Shown here piece by piece: positions 1 through 57,118 of a stretch of DNA of 57,118 bases. Positions within the stretch are counted from its first letter, which is position 1. Every line of letters starts with the position of its first letter. This stretch comes from Dimargaris cristalligena (taxonomy: Eukaryota): NCBI GenBank assembly GCA_003614675.1, contig ML002253.1, positions 1 to 57,118 of the forward strand. The letters run 5' to 3'. Below the pieces are notes generated by a model. That model worked only from the letters and a program-made list of their open reading frames with translations. It was not told where the DNA came from and made no database searches. The translations under genes were made by a program, and so were the position numbers.

Positions 1-1666
1 AAAGGGGAGGGAAAAAAACTGGTTATACCAGAAAAAAAGCCACTTCATACCCTGTATAATAATAATAATAGTAATATAATTAGTGTGGCTTATAGGGGGA
101 CAGTACACCTTGCCATACTGGACCATATCCCCTTCTCTCCTAGACAAATGTTTAGGAACACCTAGGTGCCGCCATGTACTAAGCACAATGAACTCGCCAT
201 GATAAAGGTGTCCTGCTACTATCTCACAAAGCGGTTTACAAAAAAATAACTACTTCTGTCCCAATAATTCCACACCCTTGAATATGTTCAGCTACCCTGT
301 TCCCCATGCACTCCCTTCCTACCATGGACCTATGTTCACCCAAAGGAGCCCCTTTATTCTCCAGTTAAACCCAAAAGGGATTATGATTGGCTATCTTTAT
401 TTTTGACCCTTCAAGGTCATTATTCCTTGAGTTACAATGTAAGCCTATAAGTGTACTGCTGCATAGTGCAGGTTTAAGGGAAGCTTATTCCTATCAATTC
501 CTTTATCAGGTCTACCAAAACCCAGATCATTACTATATATATCCCATTTAAACCAAAATGAGCATTAACACTGAACTCGCAGCCTAGAGCTAGCCACTAT
601 CTCTGAAACCATGAGAGAAGACGGTATTTTCTAAGCTATGAGATCATAAGGTGTTGAAGGAGAATAGTCGAGAGGGGAGAAATCATTGTCAATGACCATT
701 CAGCACCTGTTACAATTATTATATCTTAGTCTTGCAATTAGGGTATAAAAACCCACCTATTTTACTCCCTAGTTTGAGGAGCAATCCACTGAGAAAACGA
801 ACTAGTCATATATTACTGATTATACTGCACTTATTTCTAAATAAATATTCTTTTGTAAAAAACTTATCTATTAAACCAAATACTATCAATCACATCACTT
901 TAACAAGGCCATCGAAGAGCAGATATAAAGTAGCCATGGTCCCCGAATTCGAAATATATTCATTCCTTTAAAAACGAAATGATTTACCAAAGTTTTTTAA
1001 AGTTATTTTATTAATATAACACCATGTTCCGTTCCAAGCATCCGTTCACTGGGAGCCTGGAGGTATCTCCTCTGCCATCTCCATCCCATCCCTGCCCATT
1101 ACTTGAATGGTTGTTTCCGGTCTCCTCCTCCTCACAGTCCGGTGCCCTTCAACCCAACAGGGCCATGCCAAACACTCCTGAATCCCCGGGCTGTGGTACT
1201 ACAGTTGTAACTTAAAGTCTATAGTGGTCAATCTTAGGTATGCTGCACTATCATGCCTAGGAAAAAATGATGGTGATAAAAAGCCTGCAGCAGCAGTTCC
1301 AGTCTAAAGCCTTAGCCCATTAGCCATTTTCAAACAATAGCCATGCTACTAACTAGCCAGGATTTTGGGTAAGGCATCTACTTCCTCATAAGCATTTGCT
1401 AGTTAACAGACTTACTTATTACTACCTATTTCTGAATTGCTGGGTATCAGTAATGAGTATCCATAAGGGCAACTTACAGTTTAACAGTATAAGACTGTAA
1501 ATCATATGTTCAGGGGGGTGGGGTGAGGTACTTAAAATGTATTAGAAATATCTTATTAATTGAAAAGTTCTATAGTAAAGTAGCCCAATTGAGCCTCTCC
1601 CATTTCACATTCTTGAGCAATACCCCAATAAAACAAGTCTAGAGTAACCCAATAGCAGTTCCTTTC

Positions 1667-2247
1667 TGTTGGACCATCTAATACTCCTTAATCCGGACAC
1701 CTTAGTGTCCATCCCTATTAGGCCTTATAGTACTATATTAACCTTTCCATGACCATCCCTGGTATTATGGGATCCTCCTATATCATATAACCATTCCCCT
1801 TCCAGACCCTGTCTTGTCACACTAATCACTTGAGTGCTGATCCAAATACTCTTCTGGTTACCATTAGAGTCTTCTGGGTCCTAATGGTTATCCAGTTGGC
1901 CTATTTACCTATACCTTAGTCTTAGTAGTATCCTGCCCTGGGGCCTCCCTCTGGAGTTATCCCCACATATATATAACTGGGCCCCATTGGGACCAGTCCA
2001 ATTCTTCAGCTTATTATTACCCCCTAGTTTATCCCAATAAACTCTATATATACTCACCACCCTTTTATTGACTAGTAAATGTACCCACTGCATATTCCTT
2101 GCATATTATTATGCTTAGCCTTTATTAGTTAGTAACTTATCTATACCTAGCACTAGTGGCCCACTTAGCCGAGCCTGAGCCCCATCTACTGTTAGAAGCC
2201 TATCCTTGGGATTCTTGATGGACTAAGAGTAGTTAACCTAGGTGATA
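1667..2247 (+). mobile_element. Degenerate LTR, family A copy 1 (581 bp)
   Basis: Aligns end to end with 21744..22326, sharing e.g. TATACCTTAGTCTTAGTAG, CCTCCCTCTGGAGTT, ACATATATATAAC, CCCAATAAACTCTATATAT and TCTTGATGGACTAAGAGT. Begins TGTTGG and ends GGTGATA (decayed ...CA). Contains a TATA-like element followed by AATAAA. No TSD (flanks CTTTC/CTAAT). Confidence 0.7.
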
Positions 2248-3868
2248 CTAATATCTATATTTTTATAGACCTGATGTAGGATATATAGTTTTACTATTTA
2301 ACATATATGAACTCATGATAATCTACACTTTTAATATATGTAGTGTATTTCTTTGGCATATATCTGTGTTTTCAAAAAGGATTTAGTAAATTTATTTGAT
2401 AATGTCCTTTTCCTGGTGACTTCCATAATGTCAAAATAGTATGCAATGTCATATTATTTGTATATGACTGATTCATCTGGGGGCTGCTCTTTCTTATTTG
2501 TTTAACCTTGCTGCCATAGTGGGCAGTTATTCAGTGGTGACCCTCTGTCCTTCAACAAGACATATTATATCCTACTGTATACTGAAATACCCTTTTGATA
2601 CAATTTTGGTAGGTTTAAAAGATAAACCGCCCAATTTTACATTTGTACTTCATTGAAGATCCCGTGGAATTGCACTTTATTTCACCTGGATGTACCCATG
2701 ATACTTCCTGACTGCAAGGACAACGTAGCGCCTCTCTCCTCCATCTGACCAGCTTCCTTAAATGGGACATTTAACTATATCTAGCCCCCTTGAGTCTATG
2801 CACCAATAGTACCCCACAGAATCTCTCTATTCGTCTTCTACAAAATGTGGTATTAGAAAGTTTTATCAATGTATAAACTATGCCATTGCCAAATTCTTAA
2901 ATTTTGATTATCCTAAAACAGCCCATTTCTTACTAGGTTTTGCCTATTTGCCAGCGACTATTGAAAATGTTGGGTTTTGGTGACTGGTCTGAAATAGCAG
3001 ATGTGGACTTTTTCATACGCCAAAGCAGTGTCCAAACTGTAATTATATGAATGTAGAACTCTGGAATGCTTAGGAGGGTAGACCATGGCCAACCCTAATC
3101 AATATGGTGAATATTCATTTGGGAGCTGTGTGCAATACTAAGCATATTCCGTATAATGGAAAGGTCTCTGATATGTAGGTTGGAATTACTGAGAATGCAT
3201 ACATACAATAATGAGGGAGAAAATTGCAATATCTTCGTCTTGGGATAGGAATAGATATCAGAATACACTACATGACTGGGTTGCCATGCCTTCCAAATAG
3301 TTGCGAAATCTAGGATCGTACTGTATATCCCGGAATGCCCCGATTAGTTCATCCAATCAAGGACAATTCCACCAGCCCTGGGACTTATTAACCAATGGAT
3401 ACATCCGCGGGACATTTTTCTCCGATTGTAATAGTGTCATTATGTATAGATTGTCCAATCAACTAGCTAATAAATCCTTCTATTTTTTTTACTTTCCCAT
3501 TTCTTTTAAATGTCTTTGAAGCGCAACGTTAGCCAAAAGTTTTCCACAGCTGCCAGAATGTTATAGAGTTAGACAAGACGTTGGGAGCAGTGCACAGTTG
3601 TTTCGTTTAGGTTACACTTTAGTCAAGTCTATTCATTTTTTTACCATTTACCATTCGAAGTGGCAATCCTTATAATGACCCAGCTTGTTATGGAGAGCGC
3701 CTATTGTTTTTAAAATACTGTTATTTTTTCAGCCCCCTCCCCTTCTGAGTATAAGCCGAGTACTGGGTTCCCTCGACCCTTTTAGACCGAAAGCCGCCGA
3801 ACCACGCCCTTTTTACTTATCAAGTCTACGGGATTCCCCAAGACCACCGCACTGTTCGAAATTCCACC

Positions 3869-17860: not shown

Positions 17861-18552
17861 TGGCTCGGTTATTATTATCCTTAGGTCTCTTTCATTTACT
17901 TTTACTAACTTCCAGTATTTAACGTCGGCTTTTGTGCCCCGGCAAATTATATACCTAGGATATTGACCCCCTAGTGAGTTCTAAATAATAATAATAATAA
18001 TAATAAGTATAATGCATGATCACCTAGTCCAGTGGACCAGTGTCAAATAAAGTATAGGCATCTCCAAGTTTAATCAAACAGATTATGTATGATGTGCGCA
18101 ATATTCCGGTAGTCAACCGCCTACATCAAAATGCCGTGTGCCATGTATCGTATATAATAGTGCAATGCATTGGGCTGTATATGTTCGAGTGCAAATAGAT
18201 AATCGAAAGTGTGTTTATTAGCTACTCATATTTTTGGAGGAAAAGAAACCGGGCTAAAGCCAATACACTGATGAAATACCACTAGAGCTTAAGGATATAT
18301 AGATAAAGTAGAAGAAGTTGGAGTCCTCAGTTTAAACAAACCAAAACAAAACAATTCGGAAACATAATAAAATTCAATAATTAGACAAACTATTATTATT
18401 ATAATAAAAAACCACTAACCACATGGGTTCTTAAATTAATAAGAATCCCGAAAAAAAAGGGGCTGCACTGACCAAGCGTCTATCTAGCTAATATGTACTG
18501 AAAATCTTGATATTTCACCCAGCCTATAGAGCAAAGGTGTTTGGACCTTCAT

Positions 18553-20808
18553 TTAACCTCGATAGGCCTTCAGCCCCGCCTGGATCGTGGCCCTGAATAA
18601 GAGCTGTTCGATGAGGATTTGCTGCCCTAGGAACATATTTTCAATGTATTTATACAAATAGTCATCATCAGATGCCGGAGTTTTGCCCAATACAGCGGCG
18701 GTTGAAGAAACTCCGGCTTCATCAATGCCGTCCATATCGGCATCCATGCCCCCTTGAGTGCTGTCCAACCGATCGAATTCCGAATCTTCCATGCCCATGT
18801 CCATATCCATATCCATATCCATACCCTCTTTAACATTGTCAAAGCGACCTAATTCCGAATCATTACCTGATGCTGCCCGGGTTGTAGGAACTCAGGTTTC
18901 ATTGATGTCGTATATGTCTACATCCGTCCTTTTGCCCTTATTAGGGAGTTCGCTGTAATCATCCGAAATGATCTTTTGGCTCAACTGATTGAATAGTTCA
19001 AGGAAGCTATTCAATTTTTGGACTAGGCGATTGGAGGAATCGGCAGAGGTGAGGTCTGGGCTGTTGGGAGCGATCCGTTGGCTAGGTTCAACAGATTCAG
19101 AAGAGGCGATGTAATTCATATGCTGAATGACACGGACGAGGGAATTGGCCAGTGGACGGAAATCGATCATAATCTTTCGAATAGTTTTCCGATTCTCCAT
19201 ATCGTTTATCAACATCGCCATGGTACTCAGATAATCCATGTTATCCTTGAGGAGTGTGTCATAGTTGCTAGAGACCACCACCGGCACTAGGGGGTTCAAT
19301 TTACGATTATAGCAAACCCGGATCTCCATACCGTCAACTACTTAACTTTTCGGAGGCACGACTACATAGCTCTGGAAAGAGAAATTTTGGTAACATCTCA
19401 AATGATCAGCGGGGGTAAGACTTCTGAAGTCATCCGGGAACACTGGAAGCAAATGGCTGTCGGCATTCGTGTAGAGAAGTGCCACCATACACGTAATATC
19501 ACTTTGGATGAAGGGGTCGCCAAATTCAGCGAAGAGTGATTGATATTCCGGAACTTTGTATTCCATGGCCCACAAATAAAGGGTCGCGATGGTCAGCCGA
19601 AATGGACTACGGCGGAGTTCTTCGGCGCCATCGTAATTAAAGGTGGGCTCGCCTGATAAGTAATTAGGAGGTTTATTCTGGCTCGTTGCACGACTTTTGG
19701 CCTGAGTAACCTCGATTGATGGCTCGTCGGATCCCACCAGATGGGGAAGTTCCAATAAGAAATCGTCAACGTCCGGCATTACGTCTGGCTCATTGGTATC
19801 GACGGCCCCACTTGATTGTGGTGCAGTGGGTTTTATTTCTTGGCCACTTGTAATCCAGGTTTCGATCATCTGCCTGAGCGCCTTGATATTTCCGGCTCGA
19901 ACTAAATGCGCGGCCAGATGGCCCTTCACCAAATAAGGAATGCGACTGGGGGTTTGCCTAGCCAGGTTTTCCGGAAGAGTAATTCGAGCCAGACCCGGGA
20001 ACGCGGTGGCCAATGTAAAATAATCCCGCCGGTAACCATAGATGTTGAGGCTGTTGGTCATTGTCTCCAACTTTTTGGTATCACCCCGGCCTTTGTCAAG
20101 GCCATAGGCAACCAGGGGGAACACGGTCTCGAAGTCAGCGGGTTCCATTAGGTCTGATCGCACATAATCTACGTTGTTGGCCCAGTCCGCGAGCTCCGCG
20201 TAGTTATGACGCAAGTTGCCTATGGTCGGGTTGGTTTGGTATTTTTCCTCGTCAGATAAAAGCGGATATTTTTGGGGTAGGCTGAAGGTGGTTAAGGGGA
20301 ACGAAAAATCCGCCTCCGACCTCGCCATCCCCATTTTATCACCCACTCTCTCCTTTCGGGTTGCCAATAACTCCATCCGTCGATTTGTATTCTGGTTGAC
20401 CGGTCTCGCGTCCATTGACTGGCTCTGATAGTATTCGGAGGCATCTTTGGTGGCTTGTCGTTTCTGGCCCTATAGTTTGCCAATTCAAATATAACAAAGG
20501 GTTTATATTGAAATATATTGTACAAGAAAAATAGGTATTAGTTAAATTGTTCTAAATTGTATATATTATAATGTAGGTTGGGGATGCCAGATAGTTTAAA
20601 TAATGATATGGTGGTAGGGTAACCATAAAGCCAGGACATGCCCTACATAAAGGGACCTGTGCTGACTTACCAGCTGATAGCAAAATAGGTGCAGGCCAGA
20701 TTGACCACCCACCACCATACTTCTGGAGTCCAGCCCATGGGGAAGATTGGCAGTGAAATTGGCAAGAGCCATACTAACTATGGATACAGAGAGGATGGAG
20801 GACTTCAT
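18553..20808 (-). pseudogene. Orphan secreted-protein gene A (~684 codons); exons 20808..20671 and 20469..18553; in-frame TAA at 19342..19344 and TGA at 18892..18894
   Basis: ATG 20808 starts a signal-peptide-like MKSSILSVSIVSMALA. A phase-0 GTAAGT...TATAG intron joins it in frame to ORF 19342..20415. ORFs 18892..19329 and 18553..18822 continue in the same frame across single stop codons. Confidence 0.7.
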
Positions 20809-21028
20809 TGTGACAAGGAGTTGGTGGTGGTAAGAAAGGACAGTTGACTTGAGGCTAGAATGTGGAGTAATGAATTGTAAATCTTTGCACTTGAGCAATA
20901 TTGGAGGGGAGAAAACTAAAAAAAGGTAGGGAAGTGTAAGTGTGGCAAAAGATTTAAAGAGAATCACTATGTAGACAAAAGAGGGGTAAGCAGGTGTAGA
21001 TTAATCAATGGTGACCAGAAAGGTGGGT

Positions 21029-21038
21029 TATTTATATA
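21029..21038 (-). promoter_or_regulatory. Putative TATA box of secreted-protein gene A
   Basis: TATATAAATA on the minus strand ~220 bp upstream of ATG 20808. Confidence 0.4.
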
Positions 21039-21743
21039 GTACTAGGCACAGTGGTACAGAGGCATGGTCACAGGAATGCTACATGGTGCCCAAGCAATAG
21101 TTTTCCATTGTCTCAAGTGATAGACAAGAGCCAGGTTTTTATTTTATGGTGGTCACTAAAAAGGCAGCAGAAGTGAGGTGACAAAAGCAGAAGTGGCCAA
21201 AAAAACTGTCACTTGTATCTCTATATTACTAAATAGGAGAAAAATCAATTAAATTAGCTAGGTGGCTTATATAGTGCCATCCAGAGGTCAGCACTTATCC
21301 TCAGACTATGGGCAGCCAGTCCTCATCATCAGAGGGCAGAATATACTGCAATATATAGTGGTGGTATCATTCCCATCATTTTCCCAATAAAATTGCTGCC
21401 TATACTGTGGCATATACTAAAAATACTAAAAATATTGTTATTTTTTTTTACACTCATAGTTTGCATCAAAAAAGTCCACCCTTCTTCCTTACATTTAAAA
21501 GTCTGACCTATTTCTCAGTGGATTCTTTTCCATTCCATTTTATTACATTCATTAATTATGTTCTATGTCCCTTTCTTTGTATTCAGTGGTCCCTAAGGCC
21601 TACAGAATGGTTACATAAGTAACCAGTGAATTCCCTCTCATTTTGGAGGGAGAATAATCACTACTCATTTTATTTTGAACTCATTTTACTAATCCTTGAA
21701 CTCAACTGTGACTTTTCTATTTATTATTTATTATTAACACCAC

Positions 21744-22326
21744 TGTTAGCCTTTCTAATCTGACTTAATCTAGGTGTAGTAATCATCCATCCTGACTAGG
21801 CCATATAGCACCATATGTAACTTCCCATGGTCACCCCCAGTACTATAGGATCACCCTATTCAATATAACTGTCCCCTTTCCAGACTCTTAGGTTCACACT
21901 ACTCACTCCAGTGCTGATCTGACAACTCTTCCAGTTACCACCCAAGTCTTCCAGACCCTCACAACTGTCTGGTTGGCTTATTTAGTATACCTTAGTCTTA
22001 GTAGCATTTCCCTTGGGACCTCCCTCTGGAGTTGTCCCTACATATATATAACCAGGCCCCTGTTGGGACTGGTTCAATTCCTCAGCTTATTCTTACCCCC
22101 TTAGTTTACCCCCAATAAACTCTATATATGCTCACACTATTCAGTCTAACTAGTAAGTGTGTTCACTGCATGTCCCTTGTATATACCTGCACATAGCCTT
22201 TATTAGTTAGTATTATGCCTCCCACCTAATACTAGGACCCACTTGGCTAAGTCTAAGCCCCATCTGACCATTAGAAGCCTACCCCCAGGACTCTTGATGG
22301 ACTAAGAGTGGACAACTCAGGTAACA
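21744..22326 (+). mobile_element. Solo LTR, family A copy 2 (583 bp), with 5-bp target-site duplication
   Basis: TGTTA...TAACA termini. Flanks ACCAC (21739..21743) and ACTAC (22327..22331) form a 5-bp TSD with one C>T change. Homologous to 1667..2247. Confidence 0.8.
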
Positions 22327-23613
22327 ACTACCAGTTTCATTAATTTTTAATAAACTTTTGCACCCCTCATTTATCTCCCCATCTTCCATCTGATTTACTG
22401 ACCATTCACCCCTCTGAAATCCCACCATGATGATGCCCAACTCTGCCCCTGTCTCATCCAACTCTGTGAACCTCCCATCTTCTACCACCAGGGAGCTGGC
22501 CACTGTGACTTTAGGCTGTGCTGATAAGGATGCTGCTGCCTCCTTGCAAATTCCAAAGGCCATTGGCAATAGGCCGGATCTCCCAGGTAGTACACTTACA
22601 GTCATTGAACCAGCTCCTATAAAAAAAAGTCACTTTTTAAATAAACATCTGTGAATAATCAACAATGTGGGCCCTGTTACACAGTTTTGATATTATACTT
22701 GGTAGTGCTAAAACTAAATGAAGCAAAGGAAGGAAATGAAGTGGGATTAGAGAAGGCTGAGGAGAGTACAGGAGCTAACATATAGGGTCCCCGGAGTGGT
22801 GGTGGTGAGTATCTAATACCACCTGACCTATTATCATATATGCCTTTGGGCCAGGGATTCTTGATCAAGTTATCCTTTATTATGCTCCCTGTGGATGGCA
22901 ACTTATGACCAAAAGGTCGCCTACCTTGGATTCACTTTATATAAAACTCTACTTCACCTGGGTCAAGGAGTCTTTCTCTTAATTGGATAAAGATGTGGCT
23001 AAAACTCAGCTGGGAATACTCCTATCATCCATAAAGCATTTTAGTTTAGTTGACTCTTAGGACAGTCCTAACAGAAACCCCGCCTTGGCCTACTAATTGG
23101 TATATCTGGTGTCGTGTCTTTAAACTTGCACACTCCACACTGTGTTGTCCTCCCGGCTACAACGATACAGCTAAAAAGGGATTTGAAACAGGAGAAATCC
23201 CCGTTTAACATGGACCTAAAACGAGCGCAGGCCATTATGCCTAGACCGAGCCAAAATATCAGCAGCTTCCCTACCCAACACGATACCCATGCAGCCACAA
23301 TGGCTAAAATTAGTGTCCCGCTTGTATACATTCAACTTTCACTATTGGCCAAGTGTTACAATACTTGCTAAGGCAAGATATCCTGCTTACTTGAGATAAG
23401 TCCATTGTCTCTTGGGCCCATTCTCCACCTAACCGTAGAACCGGTGCTAAATCTTGCTTTGGCAATAGGCTATACCATTTTTTCGCTGTATAATCTGTCA
23501 CCGGTGTGAGTGTATTGCATAGACCACTACTGCCGCCACCCATTTGCGTCTGACTAAGAGTGGTCTCGTTGACTAATTTATTATACCCGACAATAGTATC
23601 CAGTGGCACATAT

Positions 23614-24081
23614 TGTAACGACTATTGCACCCCGTCACACGCAATGCCAATGTAGATGGGCTTAAAGTATCTTATCTAAGCTAACCTACGACTTCCTCTT
23701 TAGTTTAATAAACGGCAACAGGTCACTTGACCAATAGAATAGTTTGGGTAATATCCAACAGGACGGGAGGATCTCTGTCCGTCTGGGATGACCAAAACCA
23801 CCAGGCCCCGTTCCCCCCCCGGAACGGGGACGTGCCTTTATCTAGTATTCCCATTGTAACGGCCCACTCGACCTATAGCAGGGCCAATGCGACATTCAGC
23901 AGGACGGGATGATTTGCCCTGTCGTTGGCTATCAAAACCTACTGTCCCCGCTCCCCCCACCATGCTCTGGGATGCCCTTTCCTGCCTACTTCGACCTTTG
24001 TAATGAGCCGCTATATATACATATAATATTTCGATCTAACCGACACGTAACACTATAACAATAAATTGGCTTAGCATTACA
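23614..24081 (-). mobile_element. 3' LTR (468 bp) of a second LTR-retrotransposon family
   Basis: Terminal inverted repeats TGTAACG...CATTACA (6/7 match). On the minus strand the LTR directly follows a polypurine tract. Confidence 0.7.
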
Positions 24082-24100
24082 ATCCCACCCCCCCTCATCC
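24082..24100 (-). other. Polypurine tract (PPT) of the LTR retrotransposon
   Basis: The minus strand reads GGATGA, a G run, TGGGAT, then TGTAATG (LTR start). Confidence 0.7.
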
Positions 24101-25300
24101 GCGCGTAACAAAAAATCAGTAGGTGTGCTAAACGAGTATTGCATTTACACCTTGTTCCGATAGTCAATATATCTGATGACTATCAGCCTATTGCCAGTGA
24201 GGCTGTTCCGATTAATATATTGCGTTAAAAAAATATGTACGATTTGAATAGATGTTATTCCCTATCGCACCTTATTGTCTTACAACACCTTTGTTTAGTG
24301 CCTTCACCGCGTGTATTTTTTATCAATCGCGTAAACTTGAGCATATAGGACGGGCGGATATCGCCCCTCTGGATAAGGCGAAGTAAGAGGGTTTATTTCA
24401 ATCTGAACCACCCAGCCCAGCGATGTAATACACATTTAATTGATAGGTATATCGAGCTTTTTGCGGGGCCGATGAAGCAGTTTGCACATGAATGGAAGCA
24501 GGCACTTTGGCAGGTGGGCCAAACTCCTGTTGATAGAGTTGTGCGACAGCCAGCACATCACCCATCCCGTGTTACAACTTTGTACCCTCCTAGCCTTGCC
24601 AATTATAATATGGGAAAAGTTCAACCAGGCTGCATAACGATAAATCTGTTGGATGAGGCAAAAATCACTGGTTAAAAACGATTATCCTACATATTTCCCC
24701 ATACGTGCATCATTCAAAACCTTATACAGCTACACTGAATTCCACCCATATTCTTCTCGTATATCTACTCCACTTATTCTGCCCCGGTATGTATGGCTGG
24801 TTACACTTTCCCCTCAGTCTTTTAGTATATAAGGGCATTGAGACTTTTAGCGTTCTATAATTGATAAAATCTCTAAAGTTTCCAAAACTACTATGCCTTT
24901 TTTCGCATAAAGGCACCCCAATAATGGACCAACTTAGTTCGATGGTTAATGGTATGAATGATTTGGCTATTATATTTCTAGATAGCAGGCCAGTCGGAAA
25001 ACTTGACCCATATTTTCCGACCACTAATATTATCGATTTTTTTGACACTCGACGGAACTATTTAATTAGGCCATACCCGCTAGGGTACTACTAGTAACGT
25101 CACTATACATTTCCCCCCGAATTTAGGCAAGTCGACTTTATCGTACACCCGATAAAAATTCATTGGCGCTATTAAATGTATTGTCAAAATAAATGCCCCG
25201 TTGTAGGGCAGCCTGCCACTTTGTTATATATATATTATGAGACAATGGAAAACCAATCCAGCTGGATTAAGGCATTCCTAAATTGCATCAAGTATTTAAT
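24101..25300 (-). mobile_element. Heavily decayed and deleted Ty3/Gypsy-like pol relic (protease and RT remnants)
   Basis: Minus strand ~25253..25290 gives frameshifted DA(I)-LGMP and NP-LDW, like the protease-end motif DxILGMPW..NPxIDW. ~24850..24960 gives SFIP..LSWS...VPLCEKRHSSFGNFRDFINYRTL, like RT (GFIRPS.SPW...KKDG.LR.C.DYR.LN). Both lie upstream of the PPT and LTR in the same orientation. Confidence 0.45.
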
Positions 25301-27977: not shown

Positions 27978-28998
27978 GACGAGGTGGGTGGGGGCAATAC
28001 CGGGGCTGCTGCGCAAAGTGCGAGTGTGTGTATAATTGAGGGAGGGGTATGTATAAATGGAGGACGCCCTTTGTCGCCAATCAAGAGGCTATGTAACCCC
28101 ACTGGGAATGCCAATAAAGACTAGACGATAAGTTAGTTGGGATAAAAGGACTATCTAGCTAGTAGCATTTGTGTATTGAGGTATTTACGAGAGTGTATAT
28201 ATATATATATAGGACGCATAGAAGAGTGAAAAAAAAACTAGTAGGCAGTTGCTTGATAAACTAAGAGTGAATCCGCGGAGGAAGTGAATGGCCCTTTTGA
28301 AGGGTAAGCCATGGGAAGGGGGGGTGGAAAGAGGGGGAGGCCAATAAAGCTTGCCAAAAACGAGCTTCAGTAGTGCGGGGGGGGGTGTGGGGTGAGAGAA
28401 CAGAAAGGGTCAATTGGGGATGGTTCCACTGTGAACTCGGAAGACGACGGTCCGTCGGTTGTCGAATGCTTGTATAAGTCAGTATACAATTATATATAAT
28501 TATTAATAGAGGAGTGTTAAAGGAATGACGGACAAGAGCTAAAGGAAGTTCAGACGGAGAATACAATATGGGGCTGGCCACCCCCTCTGTTCTGTTCTAA
28601 CAGACGAACGTTCAATTGAGAAGGGAATGACAACCAACGTGGGGTAAACAATAACCACAGCCAGCAAGCAAAGTCCGCCAGGGCTTCAGTATCCAGAAGC
28701 AGGGCTGGAACCCTCTCCGCCCTCCCCCTTGGACTTGCACTTGGACTTGGTGGATTCTCCCCCCCCTCCCTTCACCCACTAGCAGCCAAATGTCGGTGGG
28801 CCCTGAGGAAAATGGGTGTGGCTACTATTCGTGCATTCTTCAAGCCGCCGTAATATGGCAAGGGGGAAGAAGAGTCGTTTAATATGGAGAGGGAGAGGGG
28901 GAAATGGCCCTCTCCTCTTCATTCTCGGCTGGGTGTTTTTTGAAGAGTTTCACCCTACCCTACTTCTCCCAGTTGTGTCTATTTCTGTGTTCGCTACC

Positions 28999-29485
28999 AT
29001 GTCGACCGATTTCGCCGACGAAGAGCTACTGGCGCTTGTCCAGTTATCTACCACCTCCAACGACCTGCCCCAATTCGCCCTACCCAGCCCCGCCGCCACT
29101 CGCATTCCCATGGGCCGCTCACCGCTTGACGGTAAGTAGTCCACAGTTCGACAGCCTTCGAAGCAAACTTCCAACCCTATTTGTTGACCAAGCTTTCGGA
29201 ACTTCCCTCCTACCACCGAGAGCCACAACAGGGTTCCGTGCTATTCCAAGGGTTCGTGTATAACCCGGGCGCACCTACCTATATTACCTTGATAGTCGGC
29301 CTATTTATTTCATTATTCACCACTGCTCACTCACTCAGCTCACTCTCATATAAATTACCCGCTACCAAACGGCCCCTTCCGTAGAAGCCCACACCAATAT
29401 TATGGCTGACTTGAAGCGCCTGGTAGCCGAGCTCGAGGACGACCGGTGGCAGTTCGAAACTAAGCCCGAAATGATCATATTTTAA
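28999..29485 (+). CDS. 77-aa two-exon microprotein, APC16 (ANAPC16)-like; exons 28999..29131 and 29385..29485
   Basis: ACCATG start and a phase-1 GTAAGT...CCGTAG intron give MSTDFADEELLALVQL...SPLDEAHTNIMADLKRLVAELEDDRWQFETKPEMIIF*. L-x-x-L-V-x-E-L-E-x-D-x-W-x-F matches the APC16 C-terminal motif as I recall it. Confidence 0.6.
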
Positions 29486-43658: not shown

Positions 43659-45058
43659 ACATAATTTAGGCATATGTACCGTGGCGGATTGATATATCTA
43701 ATGTAACACTGTTTGAACCAGTAATTCCATTCCCTCCCGAATTTACTTTATTGTCTTTACAGCCTATAGGAAGGCCCCGATTACAATGCATTAGTGTTAG
43801 TGAGTATGGGTGGGTGGATAAATGACATGGGTGGGGGAGAGTAGGAGACAGGCTAGTATCCCATCAAACACTACGAACAGTGTGTGTCAGAATTTAAACT
43901 ATCGAACCCGAGTTTGGTAATGTGGAATGGTATTTATCGCCTCGAATTATTCCACTGGTGTGGGTGGACCGGTTTAGGAAAGGTGGGTGGGCGGCCCGGT
44001 GGCTCAGCGACAACAGTCATACATACCAGATGTGACTTTATTTTCGGAGTAGACTGGTCAATAAAATACTGATGCAACCCCAGTTATAAATATTTAGGGG
44101 GCTATTAATAGTGTCGCTAGGGCGGTTGATTCGTGTACTATACACTTAACGTTCATAATAGCCGAGTATTTTACAAAATCCCCAACTTTTTTTTATAGAA
44201 AAATTGTCCGTCAAAATAACCATCCATACTTTTGATTATCTGTGGGTGGGAAAGGGTATTGTCAATCAACGTAAGTGTTTGGAAGTGTATAATCTCATAC
44301 AAAAAAACCCCCCAGAGAGTGTATATGGGTGAGATACAGAGGAATGGACCGGGTGGCCTTGACGTCCATGCCCATGCCCACCCCACCTCACCCACACATC
44401 CCCGCCGACACACACACTGACCCCTCGAATGCGCACCGGCATAATTAGACGGATCCCCGCCACATAATCACCGCTCTTCCTCTCCCACACTTAACAAAGG
44501 CCCAGACGTTTCAGCCTTGTGTCCTGAAACAGATACCCGGCCAATAGAATATCCACTCCACTTGAGATACTCTTAGAGTATTGGATGATATACCTGGAGA
44601 CCATGGACATAAAATTTGCGGTGTTCTGTTATTAGGATCACACATGAAACGCGATGTCTAAAAAAAAAAAGAAATTTCTAACAGGCTACTCCGCAAGGCA
44701 CTTCGACAATGTGGCTGGAGACCCATTTGGTAACTGCCCGAGACTTGAGTGTCAATCGAAAGCCTTAATTTATAAGAATTATAGACGCCGCTACCATTAT
44801 AACCACATAAAACGGAAAAATCGAGCCTCGAATTATTATTTTTTAAAAAAAAATCACTTGAAATGTCTAACACCACCAAATAGGTCGCAGAATCTCCCCA
44901 TTGGTGAGAGAGGTTTAGCTTACAACATTGATAAAATCACCAAGGAATTAAAATTACGGCGCTGCAAATCCACACGCGAAATTGAAAGTTATAGAATCCC
45001 AATCCCAATCCAAAATAAAATGATAATCGAATTGTAGCTGGGCACACAGCTACATCAC

Positions 45059-48000
45059 TTAATTGACGCGGAAAACATTGATAATATCCGAACGGTACTG
45101 ATTAAACTGGACTTCCGTCACATTGCCCGGAATCAAAAACTGGAAAGTTTTCCCTTCCATGTGGTTGTAGCCCGCATTCTCTGGTTCCCTGGCCCCGCCC
45201 CGATTCCCGTTAGTGGCCGGTTTCGCGGCCACGTCTTTCGAGGATTGGCCGTTACCGGGGGCGGAAGGCGCCGGGGTGGGATCAGTGGGAACGCCCTCCC
45301 ACCGGTCGCCTACTTCTTCTTCTTCTGGGCGGACCACCTTGGGAGGATTGGCCACGGGTGGCGGCGGGGGGGAATTCCGCTGTGGTCTATTTCCATTCCC
45401 CGGGGTAGTGGCATGCACAGGATGATTAACCCGGCCCATGAGCTGGGCCTGCGTGAACGAGGTCAAAAAGCCCTTGATACATTTAAATACCATCGTGGTT
45501 CGTTTCTGTAGATACGCATCGCGGGTTAGGGAGTCGGCCGTTTCCTGGAGTCGGTCGGGGTCACTTAGGAAGTACGGCGGTAGGGCTAGTGTGCCAATGT
45601 CGAACCGGGTCATGGCATCCATCACCAGCTGGAGACTGCGGGCCTCGACGCTTTGCTGATTCAGCGAGTACTGGAGACCCCCGCCACTGGGGGCGGTTCG
45701 GTCAGTGGTCGCCGGACTGCTGGTGGAGGCGATGGCTTGGGCCGTTGGGACCCGGGTGGCATACAAAACGTCATCCGGTAGGACCACGTGGAAGACGACG
45801 TGGACCAAGGGTAGGTTAGAATGCCGGGTGACCAGAATATCTCCCGGTCGAATGGACTGGCCCCCCGTCGTAAGCTGGCGATAGCTGGCCTCGAGCTGTT
45901 CCGACACGGACGGGAAATGATATTCCGTCGTTTGTTGGCACTGTTTGAAAAAATACTGGTTGGCCGTGTTCCCCAAATAGTAGTAGCGTATTTCATTATC
46001 AAGGGGGTTGTCGTCAACAACACCCAGGCCTAAACTTGATGACGATGGAAATGACGTGGACAGACCATCGATAGTCCCTCCGGTACTATTGCCCTCCCAA
46101 TCGCGAGGGGACAGTAGCAGGACCACCGCATTAAGTAGAGGCGAGTAAATCGAAGCCGCCGTTTGGGCCTGGACCGCCATACGCCGGGCCGGGTGTTTGG
46201 GTAAACTTAGGAATGATTCATGGTTGGTGGCGCTGAGGCGGAGATTATGGGTCAACGGAATCGGTTTACCCAAGGAAATCGTGAAATTGTCGACAAACGA
46301 CATTTGCCTCAGTTCCTCCTCGACCGCGGCGGCGAATTCATCGGACATGTCCTGTGGCCGGGCGGTCAGGGGCGGTGCGCTTAGCGCTGTCAGGTCACCC
46401 AGACTAGAGCTGCTGTCGCTTACTGTAGGCCCCCGGGGTCCGGCGAAAACCGAGACCGGGTCGGCTAGTTCGAGACTAATCAAAGGGCCTGTGGTCTCGG
46501 CTTGGTCGGCGGTCGGTACTGGGTCCGATTCCATCTGTTGTCGGGCTACGGGGACCCAGGCGCGGGTCAGACGGCCCAGTTTAAGGGCCAGTGATCGGGC
46601 CCGTCCGTCGCCAATGTACGAGGCAAAGGCGGCAGTGCGGCCGCGGAGTTCGTCAGAATCTACCATTTCCTTTTTGGGAGCCGCCACCACAGCCGCCGGT
46701 GCTACTGTCGTTTTCACGGAGGAGGAGTCATTAACCTGGACCAATGTCGGGTTGGGGTCCCCTTCCGCCTTGGTCGTTGATTCCACCCCCAAGCCCTGCG
46801 GATAGAGTGTACTACCACACACCACCGCTGGGTTGATGCTACCGTTAGTGCTGGTGGACAAAAGGGGGGATGCCGAATTAGTGCTTCGGGCCACCAAAGG
46901 GGTCCGTGGTGAATGGGGAGTCGAAATACCGGAGTTCGCCTCGGATGAAAACGAGGCCGTGATAGGGCTAAACGCCATCGTGGGCGTAGGCGCGGTGCTC
47001 GTTCCCGGCGAGGATGACGAATAAATGGACGATGTCCCACCCCCCTCCGAACCTGCATACAAATGGGCGGTGATGGACAAGGCCCGGGGGGATTTGGCCC
47101 GATGGAAGTTGATAATGTCGGGTTTGGTCAATAGAATATTGATGGCCCGGTCCATATCCCCTTGGTATAGGCGTAGGGAGGTGATGGACTGTTCCAGCTC
47201 GAATCCCATTTCGGTCAGGGATTGGATTTCGTTGGCGTGCTGTTGGCAGAACTGCTCATAGTCGGTACGCTCTAATTCGCCTTCGGCGGGTTCCGCCAAG
47301 GTGGGGCTGGCTGATGAGGCGGATAGCCCGAGTCCCTTAAGGGGGTTAGTAATGGGCGGTCCTTCAGTGAGGGGTTGGGTAGTAGTGACAGGGCGGGTCG
47401 GTCGAAGGGGCCGGAGACACTCGGGATCAATGGTATGGGCAAACTCGGCAAATCCAGCCTGGAGAATGGCCCGGGTTAATTGTCGGGTATCAAGTACTAG
47501 CTCTGACAACTGTTCTGGGCCATGGGTGGCGGAGGCATCATCCGCAGCGGTTGCTGGTGGAAGGGAAAACCGCGACCGTCGGCAGTGTTGGTATAACAGG
47601 GGAATAAATGCACGATAGTCTTTCCGTTGGATTGCCTTAGCCTCGTCAATCAGCTTGTCCCAGATATAGTCCAGAGTGGAAGGGTTCTCAATGTCTCGGA
47701 AATAAAGTTGGAATCGGCCAACGGGCTCAGGGAGGCTGATTTTACGATTGGATCTAGTCGTGAAAGGCGATAATATAATTTTCCAAATAATAATAATAAT
47801 AATGAAATTAGAGTAGGTTGGCGAAGAGCCGACTGTGCAGAGTTGGTAAGTGCTACGCGGTTGACGTATCTACAATGCCAAGTTCGCAACCGTGGTTTAT
47901 ATAGCCACTTACCCTTTTTTAATCGCCCGGCACGAGCGCTCCTTCTCGGCGACTAGCGACCGGATCACAGCGGCATTGTATCGCTCGATTTCCAGAAGGG

Positions 48001-48902
48001 CGTCAAATAGTAAAGGTAGGGACGAACTGGTCAGGGATTGGTAAGATTCGGGAAATGGGTCCTAGATGGAAGGTTTCACGGGAAATAGTACACAAGAAAT
48101 ATACATTTCAAATACGGTTAGAATAATAGTTCGATATACTAAAAAAAAACATAGTATAAACAGATATTAGTGAGTATATCAAGAGCGCTTAAGTGGGACA
48201 ATTTGCCAATACCTTTTCAATAGATTTGAAGAATTTCAGGGTAGTGAGGGAGTACTTGTCGTGGAGAAGACGATAGGGCCGTTTATTGCTATCAATAACT
48301 AGGTGGGGTAGGTTCATAAGGGGCATGGGTAGCAAATGATGGCAAGTTAATATTAGAAACATTTAACGGCGGTGCGATTCCGCTGACTCAAACGAGCGAA
48401 CACGGTGCTTGTGTTGGAGACCATTCCAAAAATCAAATAACTATATATATATATATATATATTGCCTAATTTGGGATTCAAGGATCAACTTACTTTGGAT
48501 ATCAACCCGTCGATGCGATTTATAATTATCTCGCAAACACGACTGCACGAGCGTATACAGGCGGGGATACAGGTACGGCGGAATCCGGTATTGTCGCAGG
48601 AACTGTAGGACCACATCGTAAACCATTTGATGTTGCTTGATAGTAAAAGCGGCGGCATGGCCCCGAAGTTCCGCCAGAAAGTCGGTGTTCGGAAGCGAGT
48701 CTTCGTCGCTTTCGTCGCTGTGCGCTTGGGCCCGCTGGCCGGCGGTGGTACCTTGAAGGGGGCGGAGTTTCCGGGCTAGGTCATCATCCAACGTGGCGTT
48801 GATGTGGAAGGCAAACGGGTCCTGGGCCAGAAGGCACGGCTTGCCATTCTCGATGGACGGGAAAATAAGGGTCAGGTCGTGGGGGGCAATGGCGAAGGGC
48901 AT
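45059..48902 (-). CDS. C12orf4/FERRY3 (DUF2362)-like protein with an internal UBA domain; exons 48902..48494, 48298..48213, 48061..47913, 47753..45059
   Basis: Three phase-compatible GT-AG introns (phases 1, 0, 2). FPESYQSL...LLEIERYNA, WDKLIDEAKAIQRKDYRAFI, DNFTISLG, TEYHFPSVSEQL and GDILVTRHSNLPLVHVVFH resemble C12orf4 (G.FYITRHSNL..HV.FH). UBA-like EIQSLTEMGFELEQSITSLRLYQGDMDRAINILL. Confidence 0.82.
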
Positions 48903-50282
48903 GGTCCCTACCCAGATGATTTACTCTACCCAGGGTCGAGTTGGAAACGGGAGCGTAGGTAGGTAGGTAGGTGGGTAAGGGCGGTTGAGGAGATAGAGGC
49001 AGGGTCGCTAAGACTAAGGCACGGGTTGGTGCGGAGGTATAGAATGCCCCCAATGGTAAACTGCTCGTTGGCAATGATTTCCAAGTGGGTGACTAGGCCC
49101 GGTTAGTAGGGCTGCAAGTAGGTGGGGGGGAGAGGGGTACAAGAGAGGTAAATCCACCTGGGCAATAAATGGCCGAGGGACGAAAGGGGAAAGGAACTGA
49201 ACCAGGAATGGCCTGAGAGGCACGGAGGTTAAGTTGGGATAAGGAGGGGTTGGGAACCTTTCCGAGCCCCACAAAATTAATCTAGTCGGATTTGGGGGTT
49301 CTTTGGCTGGCAAAAGTGGCCGACTTTGCAGGGTCTCTCACCCCCCCTATAAAATTAAGGATCTGCTAGCGCAGGGGTGGATTGGTCAATGAAGGTGACT
49401 GGCTATGTTACCAACAATAAAACCATGGGGATGCCCCCCCACTGCAACTAAACTTCCCCATAGCCCATGTGGCCAGGTTATTGTTAGGTGGGAGATACAA
49501 GTAGGCTTAGTGTTCATTCGGAATTGGGTTGTTGGATACAAGATGCATGGTGGTCCCTTTAGTGGCCAGGAATCAGCAATTTTATGTACTGGAGCGTATC
49601 GTCACAACAGTAAATTTTAAAATGGGGGGAATTCAGCGATTAGCCCCAGTCGGCCTCGGGATGTAGGGCTAGATATTTGTCGGATTAGGGTTTACCCAAT
49701 CCATTAATATAAAATCGCTGGGTAAAATGCTGCCTACTTAGGAACCTACCGTTACTAGGATTGGATTAGGTCTAGAAATAAAACTACGGGCTGCTGATAC
49801 TTTATCCGCGCTTGAAAGGCAATAACATATCCCAATAACAACCTTGGTCCTAGTTTTTTTCTATATTACAGACCCTAGGCTAACTACCCTTCATGCCGAA
49901 CTATTGCCAACATTAATTTGCACACCAGTGGTTTTTCCACGCACGCTATAACGGAGGCCAATGTCAAAGGTTGATCATATATAACTATCATGACCATCCT
50001 TGTGAAGTTTGACATAACATAAACGACACACCTCCAAACTATTTATTACATTTCCATTACATAAAGGAATGTATTTTATTCGGATAAAAATATGTATTTA
50101 TATATCCACTAAAAAATATTGCTATGTACTGAGTAGTTACATGGGCCCATAGATCAGTGGTTGCAATATGTAACTCCAAAATCGGTTCATAAAACTATAC
50201 CCCGAATAATCAAAAAGGGGAAATGCAAGAAATTATATTCTAGAGAAGACGGTATTGGGGATCGGAAACCCATTACCAGGGC

Positions 50283-52117
50283 TTAAAAATCGGGTGTAAC
50301 GTCTAGATCTGTACTCAACAGTGAGTTTACTACCACATAGACTCTTTCGCCTGGGTTCTGGCGGCCACCAACAAACGCAGCGAGCCGAAGCTGGTCGAAA
50401 GCACCGGGTTGCAACTCATTAGCGAAATAAAGCCAGTTTGTATTTGTGGTGGGGGTTACATCTTTAAGGGCCTATTTGGCTGTGTCTTGGGAAGTGGTAT
50501 CAGATGCTGGCACGACGATGATCATTTGGTTATCGTCGGTCAGATGCAGATGAGTCATGAAAGGTAGGTATCCGTGCATAAATTCGGCAGTGATGGGTTC
50601 CTCCCCGACGTTCCTATCGTCAAGTGCGCCGTCGGTGGTTAAAGGCCCACAATTCCAGATGGCTTCTAAGAAATCGGCACTTTGGGAGAGGTTCATAAAT
50701 CACATCACCTTGACCATGGTACGCTGCCCGGCCAATAGTTCGGCGTATTGACTGTCCGAATAGGGGCCGGTAAATCTATCCGTCAAACGGCCCAGAGTGG
50801 AGATATTGCGGGCCAAGGCGGCCAATATAATGGCCAAGCAGTTGAAAGGCCGGTAAATATGACTGGCGTTACTTCTGGTCAATGGGTCTTGTTCGAGCCA
50901 TGTCCACAATCCGGTCATGAATTCTTCGAGACAATCGAGTCGGTCGGTCGTCGCCAATCGGGCCATCACGAGGGCAGTGGTACTGTCAATTGAATCGCTA
51001 AAAATACGGATAAGCTTAGACTCCGACCATTCCGTTTGGGGGTCCAGCTTCAATAGTTCGCGCATATGTTCCAGTTCGGAGGGATCCCAACCGCGGCGCA
51101 CGGTTTGGATCAATTGAGGATCGAGTAAAGCCCGCAATGACCCAAGAACGTGGTGGCCGCTAGGTAGGGCGTCGGTTAAGGCAAGCAGGGGAACTTGATT
51201 GACCAGAGCCTTACTTGGCAGTTGGTTCGGATTCACGAGGCGCCATGCGCCAGGCTGGAACATCGGTTCGGCCTTATGCTTCTTGAGATATTGATAATAG
51301 CTCTGAATTGACGCTAATGGCATATCCATACCGCCGGGCTCGGCCGATCCATCGAATAATTGGCGTGTCCTGTAACACGAGTGGTATGCTTCATGGTACA
51401 GCCTGCCGGAAAGCTGGTGGCGAAAAAAGGTGTGCCATAGAATAGCTAATTCTTTGGGCTGTTGCTCGACTCCGGGCTGGCTTTTTAGATTGGACCACTC
51501 GCCCAGAAGAGCCCCCAAGGCAGACTAAATGACAGAATCGATAACACGAATAACAGATCAATGGGGAATATAGGCGGTATTAGATCATTGCTAGGCATCA
51601 GTAATTGGTTTGTGTGATGGACTAGGATACATTTAGTTATTGACTACAATTATTATAAAATTACTGAAAATTTCCTTCAAACTGAAATTAATATTTAATA
51701 GCATTTTCAAATTTTACGTACCAGTGTAGTTTCGTATGGATGAAGTTTCACGTGTTCCCCGATTCCCCTAGAGACCCTTAGTAACTCCCCACGATTACCG
51801 ATGAGGGCCGAGTCAATAATTTCTTGAATAATTTCGCTAGGCATGTTGTCTAACTTATGTTTTTGGCCATTGACGTATGTTGCAGCTAGGGGGGGGGGGC
51901 TTTTACAAATAGTTTCCAGTTCCATGGGGGGGCTACCATATGTAGCTTGGGGTGTGGTGGAGACAATTGGCTCGCAAAAAGAGGTGTCATCATCGGCAGA
52001 TTCCAGGCAGAGACTGCTCATTAAGTTACCTGGGGCTGCTTTGGAATCATGTATACGGTGGACGAAGGCCAAGGCAATCACCGTAAAACCAAAAGTGTGC
52101 ATGTTATAAAGGGCCAT
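50283..52117 (-). pseudogene. Orphan secreted-protein gene B with an F-box-like motif (~545 codons); exons 52117..51722 and 51524..50283; in-frame TGA at 50700..50702 and TAG at 50472..50474
   Basis: Hydrophobic N-terminus MALYNMHTFGFTVIALAFV. A phase-0 GTACGT...TTTAG intron joins it in frame to ORF 50700..51518. The frame continues ATG TGA TTT ATG into ORF 50472..50696, then 62 more open codons after the TAG to TAA 50283. Confidence 0.68.
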
Positions 52118-52280
52118 TATAAGTAGACTTGGTTAAAAAAAGGGGGGAAGTCAAGAAATTTAGACGCCAAAAACGGGCGTTTATATATAAAGAATGAGGT
52201 TGGGCAGATTTTCCAAACGAATAGGGAAAATGGATGGGTGAGTGGTTCGGGTGATTTGGTGCTGGGAGCAACTAATCATG

Positions 52281-52290
52281 TTTATATATA
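52281..52290 (-). promoter_or_regulatory. Putative TATA box of secreted-protein gene B
   Basis: TATATATAAA on the minus strand ~165 bp upstream of ATG 52117. Confidence 0.35.
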
Positions 52291-55473: not shown

Positions 55474-57118
55474 ATGGACCCCACCCTCATTGTCCACACT
55501 CTTCAACTCAACGAGAATGGCGAGCCTGGCCAAACCAACGAATTTCTACGGCTCCCAGCTCCCGTGCAGCCATACGGTCTGCGTTTCCAAATTACGGCGG
55601 GTTCCGAAGCCGCCAACCGGCCCGTCCTGTACACCAACTACCCCTTAACGGGGGTCAAGTTCTCCCGGACCCAGTTCCATCCCCGCCCCTTCAGCGTGGG
55701 AACCAGCAGCGAACTCGTGTGCGAATTCCCCATTACTGTCGCGGGACCCTACCAGTACTATGTCGAATACCGGGACGACCACCGGGAGGAGGGCCGTAAC
55801 CGCACCGCCACCGCTTACTTTATCGTGGACCCCGACCTGACCATCCGGTCCCGCCCGGCCGCTCGGGGTATCCTGCGGGAGGCCGAAGCCGTGTCCGTCC
55901 GGCACTTGCCCCTCGACGGCATAGCCTTACAAACGATGGTCCCGAAGTGGATGGGTCCCCTTCGCGACTGGAACCGTCACCTGGAGGCCAGCTCCCAGCT
56001 CGGCTATAACATGATTCATTTTGTGCCCCTGCAGAAACGCGGGGAGTCCAACTCGCCCTTCTCCATCTACGACCAACTGGCCTTGTCCGACGACCTGTTC
56101 ACTTCCACCGATCGCATCCAAAGCGACGATGACAAATACGAACTGTTGGCCCAGCTGCTGGTGTCCATGGAGGCCGAAATGGGCATGCTAGGCCTGGTGG
56201 ACATGGTCTGGAATCATACCGCATTTAATTCGGATTGGCTGCTAGACCACCCTGAAGCCGGGTATAATTTGGCCAATTCGCCCCACCTGACCGCTGCTTT
56301 TGAGCTGGATGAGGCCATTATGAAGCTGTCTGGAGAACTCGCCCAGCATGGGGTCCCTTCCGAGCTCAATACTGAGGCTGATTTGAACGCCCTAGTGGCC
56401 GCCGTCAAGGAACACGCCATTCGGGGCATCCGCCTGTGGGAGTTCTATGCTATTGATGTCGAGTCCTGTCTGGCCGCCACCCGTGCTGCCCTGGAAGACC
56501 CCGCGAATCTCCCTGTGGTTGACCGCTTTGACACGCGTACCCTGCGGGGGCTCCCCCTCGCCGAAAAGGCCCTCAGGCTGTACGAAGCAGCCTTTGGTGG
56601 CGATCGTCCAGTCGGCACCCGTCGTACCCCCAACGTCTGTGACTTACCCGTACTGCTTTCCTTCATGAAGGCCCTGTGCGGGTCGCTGAATGATGTTGAA
56701 CACGTGATGCAGCACACTCAGCAACTGCTGAACGAAATCAATGTACCCCACTATGCGCTCTACGACCAGCACGTGGATAGCATCCTGTCCAATATCCGCA
56801 ATACCGTCAAGTACGAACGGCTCGACAGCAATGTNNNNNNNNNNNNNNNNCGCCAATGCCTTGGACAACTTCGCCGAGGCCCACTCCACCGCTTATCTAG
56901 AACGTAAGGTGATCGTCTGGACCGACTGTGTCAAGCTCCGCTACGGCAAAGCTCCTGAGGATAATCCCTACCTATGGGACCACATGAAGCGGTACACTCA
57001 GATCATGGCTCGCTACTTCCACGGGTTCCGCATCGACAACTGCCATTCCACCCCCATTGAGCTGGCCGAGTATTTGATTGACGCCGCCCGTGAGGTGCGC
57101 CCCAACCTGTACGGGTTG
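55474..57118 (+). CDS. GDB1: Glycogen debranching enzyme (4-alpha-glucanotransferase/amylo-1,6-glucosidase), 5' part
   Basis: ACCATG 55474. Before the gap: [56 protein letters not shown]. After the gap: [19 protein letters not shown] and [11 protein letters not shown] (catalytic Asp region). Runs off the window end. Confidence 0.96.
56835..56850. other. Assembly gap (16 N)
   Basis: N run. The GDB1 frame shifts across it, and conserved residues appear to be missing, so the real gap is probably longer. Confidence 0.95.

Follow-up and report, generated by a model that had tools for sequence, protein, structure and literature searches.

Methylation-driven depletion of CG dinucleotides (CpG) in transposons is a textbook phenomenon of vertebrates and plants. 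PMC12582260 describes the loss of CpG to TpG and CpA for silenced transposons as well as for the DNA next to them. For early-diverging fungi, Linderina pennispora included, 5-methylcytosine (5mC) confined to repeats or transposons is reported (excerpts of PMC11258239 and PMC12695648), and in Phycomyces it lies almost solely in repeats, as it does in L. pennispora, a member of the Zoopagomycota (excerpts of PMC11258239). Here we describe a tract of 2114 bp with no CpG at all, found at positions 20461–22574 of a complete contig of Dimargaris cristalligena (57,118 nt, referred to as the window in the following). The original prediction, made from the sequence before the organism was named, had suspected an early-diverging fungus, which is correct as Dimargaris belongs to the Zoopagomycota (Kickxellomycotina). 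The tract covers a solo long terminal repeat (LTR) that sits inside another repeat, and it continues into the upstream region, the first exon and the first intron of a species-specific gene on the minus strand, named P0001 here. We consider it likely to be a mutational scar that cytosine methylation in CpG context has left on this nested transposon cluster.

The fungi with repeat-confined 5mC (Linderina pennispora, Phycomyces blakesleeanus and Spizellomyces) resemble this locus in that the mark is in CG context, sits almost exclusively on repeats or transposons and spares genes, and Linderina even belongs to the same subphylum as Dimargaris. They are known from direct methylomes, whereas Dimargaris is known by its mutational scar alone, and neither a spread into a gene nor full erasure of CpG, both seen here, is described for them in the excerpts of PMC11258239 and PMC12695648. 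CDCA7F is listed in Coemansia reversa and L. pennispora, and nearly all CDCA7-bearing species possess DNMT1, with neither of the two among the exceptions named in the available part of the preprint (10.1101/2023.01.30.526367). A literature search revealed no methylome or methyltransferase report for the Dimargaris lineage, supplementary tables, which may list enzymes, being outside this search. Vertebrates and plants share with the locus the loss of CpG to TpG and CpA in silenced transposons and adjoining DNA, but in Dimargaris the background is CpG-normal (observed/expected 0.81), the islands are sharp holes in it and the loss is total instead of ~80%. As the general principle of 5mC on repeats followed by CpG decay is well known, it is the lineage that is new. 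The locus therefore has its value as a marker and test locus and not as a new mechanism: it is evidence at the sequence level that CpG methylation, or a CpG-directed equivalent, acted on the transposons of a dimargaritalean mycoparasite.

The CpG-free tract and its repeats

The window contains 2694 CpG, which corresponds to the ratio of 0.81 given above. Within the tract (461 C and 392 G, 40% G+C), for which the absence of any CG had been claimed where dozens should occur, we indeed counted none, against 85.5 expected by base composition and 69 expected at the window-wide ratio. The distance from the CG at 20459 to the next one at 22575 (2116 bp) is the widest CG-to-CG spacing in the window, and the next-largest gaps of 507, 476 and 458 bp all lie inside 1187–2628, around a second copy of the LTR. 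Beyond these two zones no gap exceeds 232 bp and successive CpGs are a median of 12 bp apart, and windows of 2114 bp (step 100) clear of both show a median CpG observed/expected ratio of 0.83 and a minimum of 0.59. The tract is thus, within the contig, the outlier that had been predicted, far below the lowest comparable window.

Given the low G+C content of the tract, one could suspect that AT-rich non-coding DNA lacks CpG here merely through its composition and that no directed process was involved, and the AT-rich intron taken alone would be CpG-less by chance with P ~0.02. Other AT-rich 500-bp windows of the contig, however, have ordinary CpG ratios of 0.54–1.23, and a low G+C content can therefore not account for the tract. 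If the CpG ratio of the whole window is applied, the probability of finding no CpG comes to ~1e-30 over the tract and to ~1e-10 over its single-copy stretch, and the two LTR copies differ by TG/CA swaps (see below). With this evidence chance keeps a negligible probability. The features of the tract and of the second CpG-poor island are as follows, none of them being assigned to a strand:

20461..22574, CpG-free tract, 0 CpG against 85.5 expected from composition
20809..21271, single-copy upstream region of the P0001 gene, 0 CpG (14.6 expected for 20811–21271)
21272..21743, left part of the host repeat (repeat B), ~10x single-copy depth, 0 CpG against 13 expected
21739..21743, left copy of the target-site duplication (5 bp, ACCAC) flanking the solo LTR
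21744..22326, solo LTR of 583 bp (TGTTA...TAACA) from a very abundant family, 0 CpG against 25.5 expected
22327..22331, target-site duplication on the right side of the LTR (ACTAC), matching ACCAC in 4/5 positions with one transition
22327..22476 (approximate end), right part of repeat B, where LTR-less paralogous contigs join across
22575..23122, right-hand gradient, 5 CpG against 22.5 expected, with another diverged repeat at 22721–23122
1188..2627, second CpG-poor island, 2 CpG against 50 expected
1667..2243, other LTR copy, 76% identical to 21744–22326, 2 CpG remaining

A repeat search at default sensitivity returned a 64-nt match only, and it was blastn together with local alignment that revealed LTR homology over 544–620 bp. 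Using 20300–23400 as query against the window, blastn gave a single extra match (21786–22322 to 1708–2243, 75.7% identity), which local alignment widens to 21743–22355 and 1666–2270. The element has TG..CA termini, a short terminal inverted repeat and a target-site duplication, it is multicopy, and an empty paralogous site exists, all as expected for a solo LTR. No coding remnant could be detected, as none of the 9 stop-free open reading frames tested from 21258–25057 matched a Pfam family.

In order to obtain a depth profile over 18500–24500 we used contigs from four public runs, three of which (X1–X3) belong to one study and the fourth (X5) to another. Summed contig depth stays level between 18500 and ~21112, rises to ~10x from the bin containing 21272 onwards and reaches its maximum over the LTR, where it amounts to 18–270x the flank depending on the run (45,000–49,000 against 180 in X5). 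Each of the four runs contains the LTR family in abundance, and a second rise to ~25x the flank in X5 is seen at 22721–23122. The predicted multicopy nature of the LTR and its immediate flanks is therefore evident. Unitigs of the window stop at 21271–21300 in all runs, and paralogous contigs of 90% identity begin at 21272. Diverged contigs in X2 and X5 connect 21741 to 22335 with five other letters in between and no LTR; this junction represents a paralogous empty site and shows that the LTR is nested within repeat B. The question whether 20461..21743 is itself repeated thus has two answers: 21272–21743 is repeated at ~10x, and 20461–21271 has single-copy depth. The latter part comprises 811 bp, is single-copy at ≥88% identity and holds 0 CpG against 28 expected. 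As the promoter region lies in this part together with the first exon and intron, the tract does reach beyond the repeats into the gene as had been proposed.

The region at ~1190..2625 around the other LTR copy had also been described as nearly CpG-free, and with 2 CpG where 50 are expected this is the case. Both CpG-poor islands of the contig (2/2) contain the LTR and are centred on this one family, so that within the contig the expected association of CpG-poor tracts with repeats is found. The sequence to the left of the second island (1–1187) is CpG-poor up to base 1 as well, with ratios of 0.15–0.57 per 500 bp, and the assembly may break here inside a larger repeat-rich, CpG-depleted region.

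Mutational signature and strain comparison

If the tract is a methylation scar, CpG-context 5mC would have been deposited on the cluster formed by the solo LTR and its host repeat, and the methylated CpGs would have deaminated to TpG and CpA until all of them were gone. The methylated domain would have overrun the repeats by ~0.8 kb of single-copy DNA, covering the first exon and intron of the gene as well as the sequence upstream of it, and it would have terminated at the start of exon 2 or at most ~200 bp from it. The base composition agrees with the prediction that the loss should be specific for CpG and accompanied by a gain of TpG and CpA. The observed/expected ratio of TpG+CpA is 1.18 in the tract, 1.28 in its single-copy part and ~1.5 in exon 1, compared to 0.99–1.00 in the rest of the window, and GpC is normal in the single-copy part, at 1.10. 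For the whole tract GpC is 0.84 and for the LTR 0.63. Both LTR copies are poor in GpC (0.63 and 0.72, with 0.37 and 0.47 in single 500-bp windows) and have an excess of TpA over ApT (1.51 and 1.30), a composition that cannot be put down to CpG decay and is apparently characteristic of the family.

The comparison of the two LTR copies allowed a closer look at the lost sites. Across 570 aligned columns there are 136 mismatches, among them 54 adjacent double differences, of which TG in one copy facing CA in the other is the most frequent class. It makes up 13 of the 25 pairs in which both neighbours are transitions (binomial P = 2e-6 for an expected share of 1/8), the other seven classes being represented 0–4 times. 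Such swaps arise where an ancestral CG decayed on one strand in the first copy and on the other strand in the second. From them we can reconstruct an ancestral LTR with ~26–28 CpG, a ratio near 1, which were lost after insertion and independently in each copy. None of these ~28 CpG survives in the copy within the tract and 2 of ~28 survive in the other. Without the TG/CA sites the copies differ in 110 of 544 columns (68 transitions and 42 transversions), giving a Jukes–Cantor distance of 0.236 for non-CpG positions or ~0.12 per lineage. As a rough estimate, which presumes that half of the doubly decayed sites show as swaps, CpG sites decayed ~20–30x faster than the average site. This rate fits dense methylation combined with poor repair.

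RIP (repeat-induced point mutation) of Neurospora is similar to the process seen here as it is repeat-directed and harms an adjacent single-copy gene of a lineage-specific and probably secreted family. In Leptosphaeria, RIP leaks into effector genes located beside repeats. The target in Dimargaris, however, is CpG and not CpA, and there is no attributable gain of TpA: TpA/ApT is 1.05 for the tract, which means no shift in the direction of RIP, while (CpA+TpG)/(ApC+GpT) is 1.27 compared to 1.05–1.16 elsewhere. Differences between C and T in the LTR pair also show no preference for CpA (14% with A as 3' neighbour, 17% with C and 11% with T). Classical RIP, which the original prediction had named next to 5mC deamination, was therefore rejected, since a bias from CpA to TpA is missing and CpA+TpG is raised instead of lowered.

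The same two results also speak against a broader alternative, namely an active CpG hypermutation that is triggered by repeats, acts in bursts and leaks into the single-copy flank, be it of a RIP-like or a TpCpG type. Such a process would account well for a total loss (0 of ~85), for a CpG decay that we estimate at 20–30x the background and for an abundant repeat family as target, and there are precedents. In the Pucciniomycotina a TpCpG hypermutation is known, and the plain CpG excess elsewhere in basidiomycetes is attributed to spontaneous 5mC deamination (excerpts of PMC3318451). For Neurospora, a RIP pathway that requires Dim2 and Dim5 has been described which introduces mutations into single-copy DNA bordered by repeats; the kingdom-wide screen reported in the same excerpts of PMC12543289 found RIP-like signatures in ascomycetes only. 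The hypermutation of Pucciniomycotina is alike in that C-to-T changes in CpG context are concentrated in repeats, and it is characterised by a preference for a 5' T. With all present-day CpGs of the tract gone, the 5' context can be read only from the decayed ancestral LTR sites, which are mostly CCGG: 7 of the 13 swaps read CTGG against CCAG, and the 5' base at the 13 reconstructed sites is C in 34 of 52 strand contexts. Against hypermutation in general it also has to be noted that the 811-bp single-copy flank has been emptied up to a step and not along a decaying gradient, and that the two strains differ at former CpG sites singly, as gradual decay predicts. Taken together, hypermutation appears unlikely to us, and we infer passive deamination rather than an active mutator, with 5mC as the agent that a DNMT1- or DNMT5-type enzyme would have written and maintained.

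The strain differences come from the X5 contig across the left edge of the tract, which differs from the window at 10 positions in 18500–20460 (0.5%) and at 12 positions in 20461–21300 (1.4%). There is a TG/CA swap at 21052–21053, and two CpG are retained by X5 in 20461–21300, where the window has none: at 21211 the window reads CA and X5 CG, and at 21073 the window reads GG and X5 CG. These differences at former CpG sites show that CpG decay has been going on since the strains split, an indication that it is still in progress. Within exon 1, X5 has one difference only (20701), which lies in the third position of codon 36 and turns CAA into CAG, as worked out by hand.

The tract edges and the P0001 gene

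The 375-codon frame 19342–20469 on the minus strand is 100% identical to a hypothetical protein of 551 amino acids from D. cristalligena, and a model consisting of exon 1, intron 1 and exon 2 reproduces residues 1–420 of this database protein. The elements of the model, all on the minus strand, are:

20671..20808, minus strand, exon 1 (46 codons), 0 CpG against 6.6 to ~8 expected, P(0) = 0.0014, TpG+CpA observed/expected ~1.5
20470..20670, minus strand, intron 1 (GT..AG, AT-rich), 0 CpG against ~4–5 expected, P(0) ~0.02
19345..20469, minus strand, exon 2, CpG-normal (70 CpG against 70.9 expected over 19342–20469)

That the tract covers intron 1, exon 1, the LTR and its flanks was anticipated correctly, and the model now assigns exon 1 and intron 1 to the positions listed. 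Exon 2 had been called CpG-rich; CpG does return there abruptly, but the count itself is normal.

The terminal CG at 20459–20460 belongs to an Arg codon and lies 10 nt inside exon 2, in agreement with the prediction, exon 2 starting at 20469 next to the acceptor AG at 20470–20471. The left edge is abrupt, with 13 CpG in 20263–20459 (7 of them within the last 100 bp) and then none, yet its position can be resolved only to ~200 bp because the AT-rich intron would hold just ~4 CpG by expectation. The right edge is a gradient with the 5 remaining CpG of 22575–23122. The description of the tract as sharply bounded therefore applies to the step beside exon 2 and not to the right side. At the margins of the islands 8 of 10 surviving CpGs are found in CCG context (post hoc P = 0.014). 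A protected CCG context was considered for them and dropped, as the decayed ancestral LTR sites are also mostly CCGG and such CCGG-rich sites account for the bias among the few margin CpGs.

The abruptness of the left edge is the only argument for an artefact or for foreign DNA, that is, for a chimera or a contamination from a CpG-poor genome. Contigs spanning position 20460 are present in 4/4 runs from two studies:

19482–21635, X1 record 3, contig across the left edge
18500–21300, X2 record 9, contig across the left edge
19482–21521, X3 record 18, contig across the left edge
18500–21300, X5 record 25 (second study), contig across the left edge with 22 differences

A chimera of assembly or amplification is thereby excluded. 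In addition, homologues of exon 1 occur in the paralogues that D. cristalligena itself possesses and the LTR family is abundant across the four runs, which makes foreign DNA an explanation with hardly any probability left.

Another explanation would accept methylation decay and see in the left edge a recombination scar, either because exon 2 and everything behind it was gene-converted from an unmethylated paralogue or because the 5' part of the gene arrived together with the transposons. The P0001 family would offer material for this as it comprises at least nine clusters within the species, and the edge coincides with GQKRQAT at the exon junction, where conservation within the family is highest. 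On the other hand, the nearest known paralogue shows 48% identity, so that no recent donor is visible, the peptide of exon 1 is homologous to the N-termini of the paralogues, a GT..AG intron of the usual kind connects exon 1 with exon 2, and the identical junction is present in the second strain. We regard a recombination scar as improbable.

With methylation decay as the preferred explanation, the position of the edge might be due to active-gene chromatin or to a domain of N6-methyladenine (6mA) beginning near exon 2, or alternatively to a maintenance that proceeds site by site without de novo spread, both of which are speculative. DNMT5-type inheritance, which works site by site and has no de novo activity, would hold an edge at exactly the same base pair for long periods. 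The fixed edge is what Dimargaris would have in common with Cryptococcus, for which maintenance-only CG methylation by DNMT5 is cited in the available parts of PMC7862722 and of the preprint 10.1101/2023.01.30.526367; a DNMT5 or a missing de novo enzyme in D. cristalligena is speculation. That Dimargaris possesses either a repeat-triggered CpG mutator, as a RIP-like defence outside the Dikarya, or a maintenance-only system of the Cryptococcus type can be given little credence. If true, the former would erode neighbouring lineage-specific genes for secreted proteins as RIP does with effectors, and the latter could explain how an edge stayed fixed no more than a few bases away from an exon boundary while all methylated CpGs decayed.

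Several points have to be held against methylation as the cause of the tract. Its abrupt left edge falls beside an exon boundary, for which the causes named above are speculative, and the association with repeats comes from one 57-kb contig plus depth over 6 kb. Part of the LTR composition is a family trait, as its low GpC (0.63) indicates. The loss of CpG is more complete than in vertebrate-style decay, and its roughly estimated rate would also be explained by an active mutator. Excerpts of PMC11258239, moreover, describe an overall scarcity of 5mC in the Mucoromycota and the Zoopagomycota. Nevertheless, the absence of CpG is far beyond chance and, together with the evidence from the LTR copies, the strains and the protein, it is best read as a CpG-methylation scar on a nested transposon cluster.

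The evidence from the protein derives from the family of P0001, which is located at 18892–20808. A search of the full library revealed 8 further cluster representatives at E ≤ 0.001, and the clusters of these 8 relatives consist of D. cristalligena proteins only, from two assemblies. No Pfam domain was found in P0001. The N-terminus of the family probably resembles a signal peptide as judged by eye, which is the basis for the proposed secretion, and dibasic RR and KR motifs are conserved near residue 45. As the paralogues share the exon-1 peptide as well as the GQKRQAT stretch, exon 1 is genuine coding sequence and not derived from a transposon. In order to compare P0001 with its relatives we defined conserved columns as those in which the relatives represented (at least 5 of 6 aligned) agree with no more than one exception. 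Exon 1 has 17 conserved columns and P0001 departs from 4 of them, exon 2 has 112 with 24 departures, and CpG decay accounts for three of the four departures in exon 1 but for none of the 24 in exon 2 (hypergeometric P 0.0012, worked by hand from the counts). The three changes are Pro39Leu (CCG to CTG), Arg43Cys (CGC to TGC) and Arg44Tyr (CGT to TAT), all at residues kept in 6/6 paralogues, and the latter two abolish the RR pair that all six share. The proposed leak into the gene has therefore altered conserved residues of the protein: the scar extends ~0.8 kb into a species-specific gene and changes its conserved dibasic RR motif. Proximity to transposons can thus speed the decay or divergence of an orphan gene family by a route other than RIP.

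The gene may also be a recent pseudogene or truncated. In the region 19282–19344 (minus strand) an in-frame TAA is present at 19342–19344, which the database model excises by means of a GT..AG intron of ~59 nt, and the skipped segment still reads in frame as a peptide containing EIRVCYNRKLNP, which is encoded as exon in the paralogues. The cluster of P0001 has one member, and the other assembly has no protein that clusters with it.

The rest of the contig

Six of the eight longest frames of the window encode ordinary eukaryotic domains (JmjC, MFS, DHHC, WD40, RPA-interacting and Fy-3). Somewhat low CpG ratios of 0.43, 0.37 and 0.42 occur at 28501–29000, 49001–49500 and 52001–52500, respectively, and short CpG gaps of 149–232 bp are located at 49370 and 52248. 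Close to the right end of the contig there is a scaffold gap of 16 N at 56835–56850.

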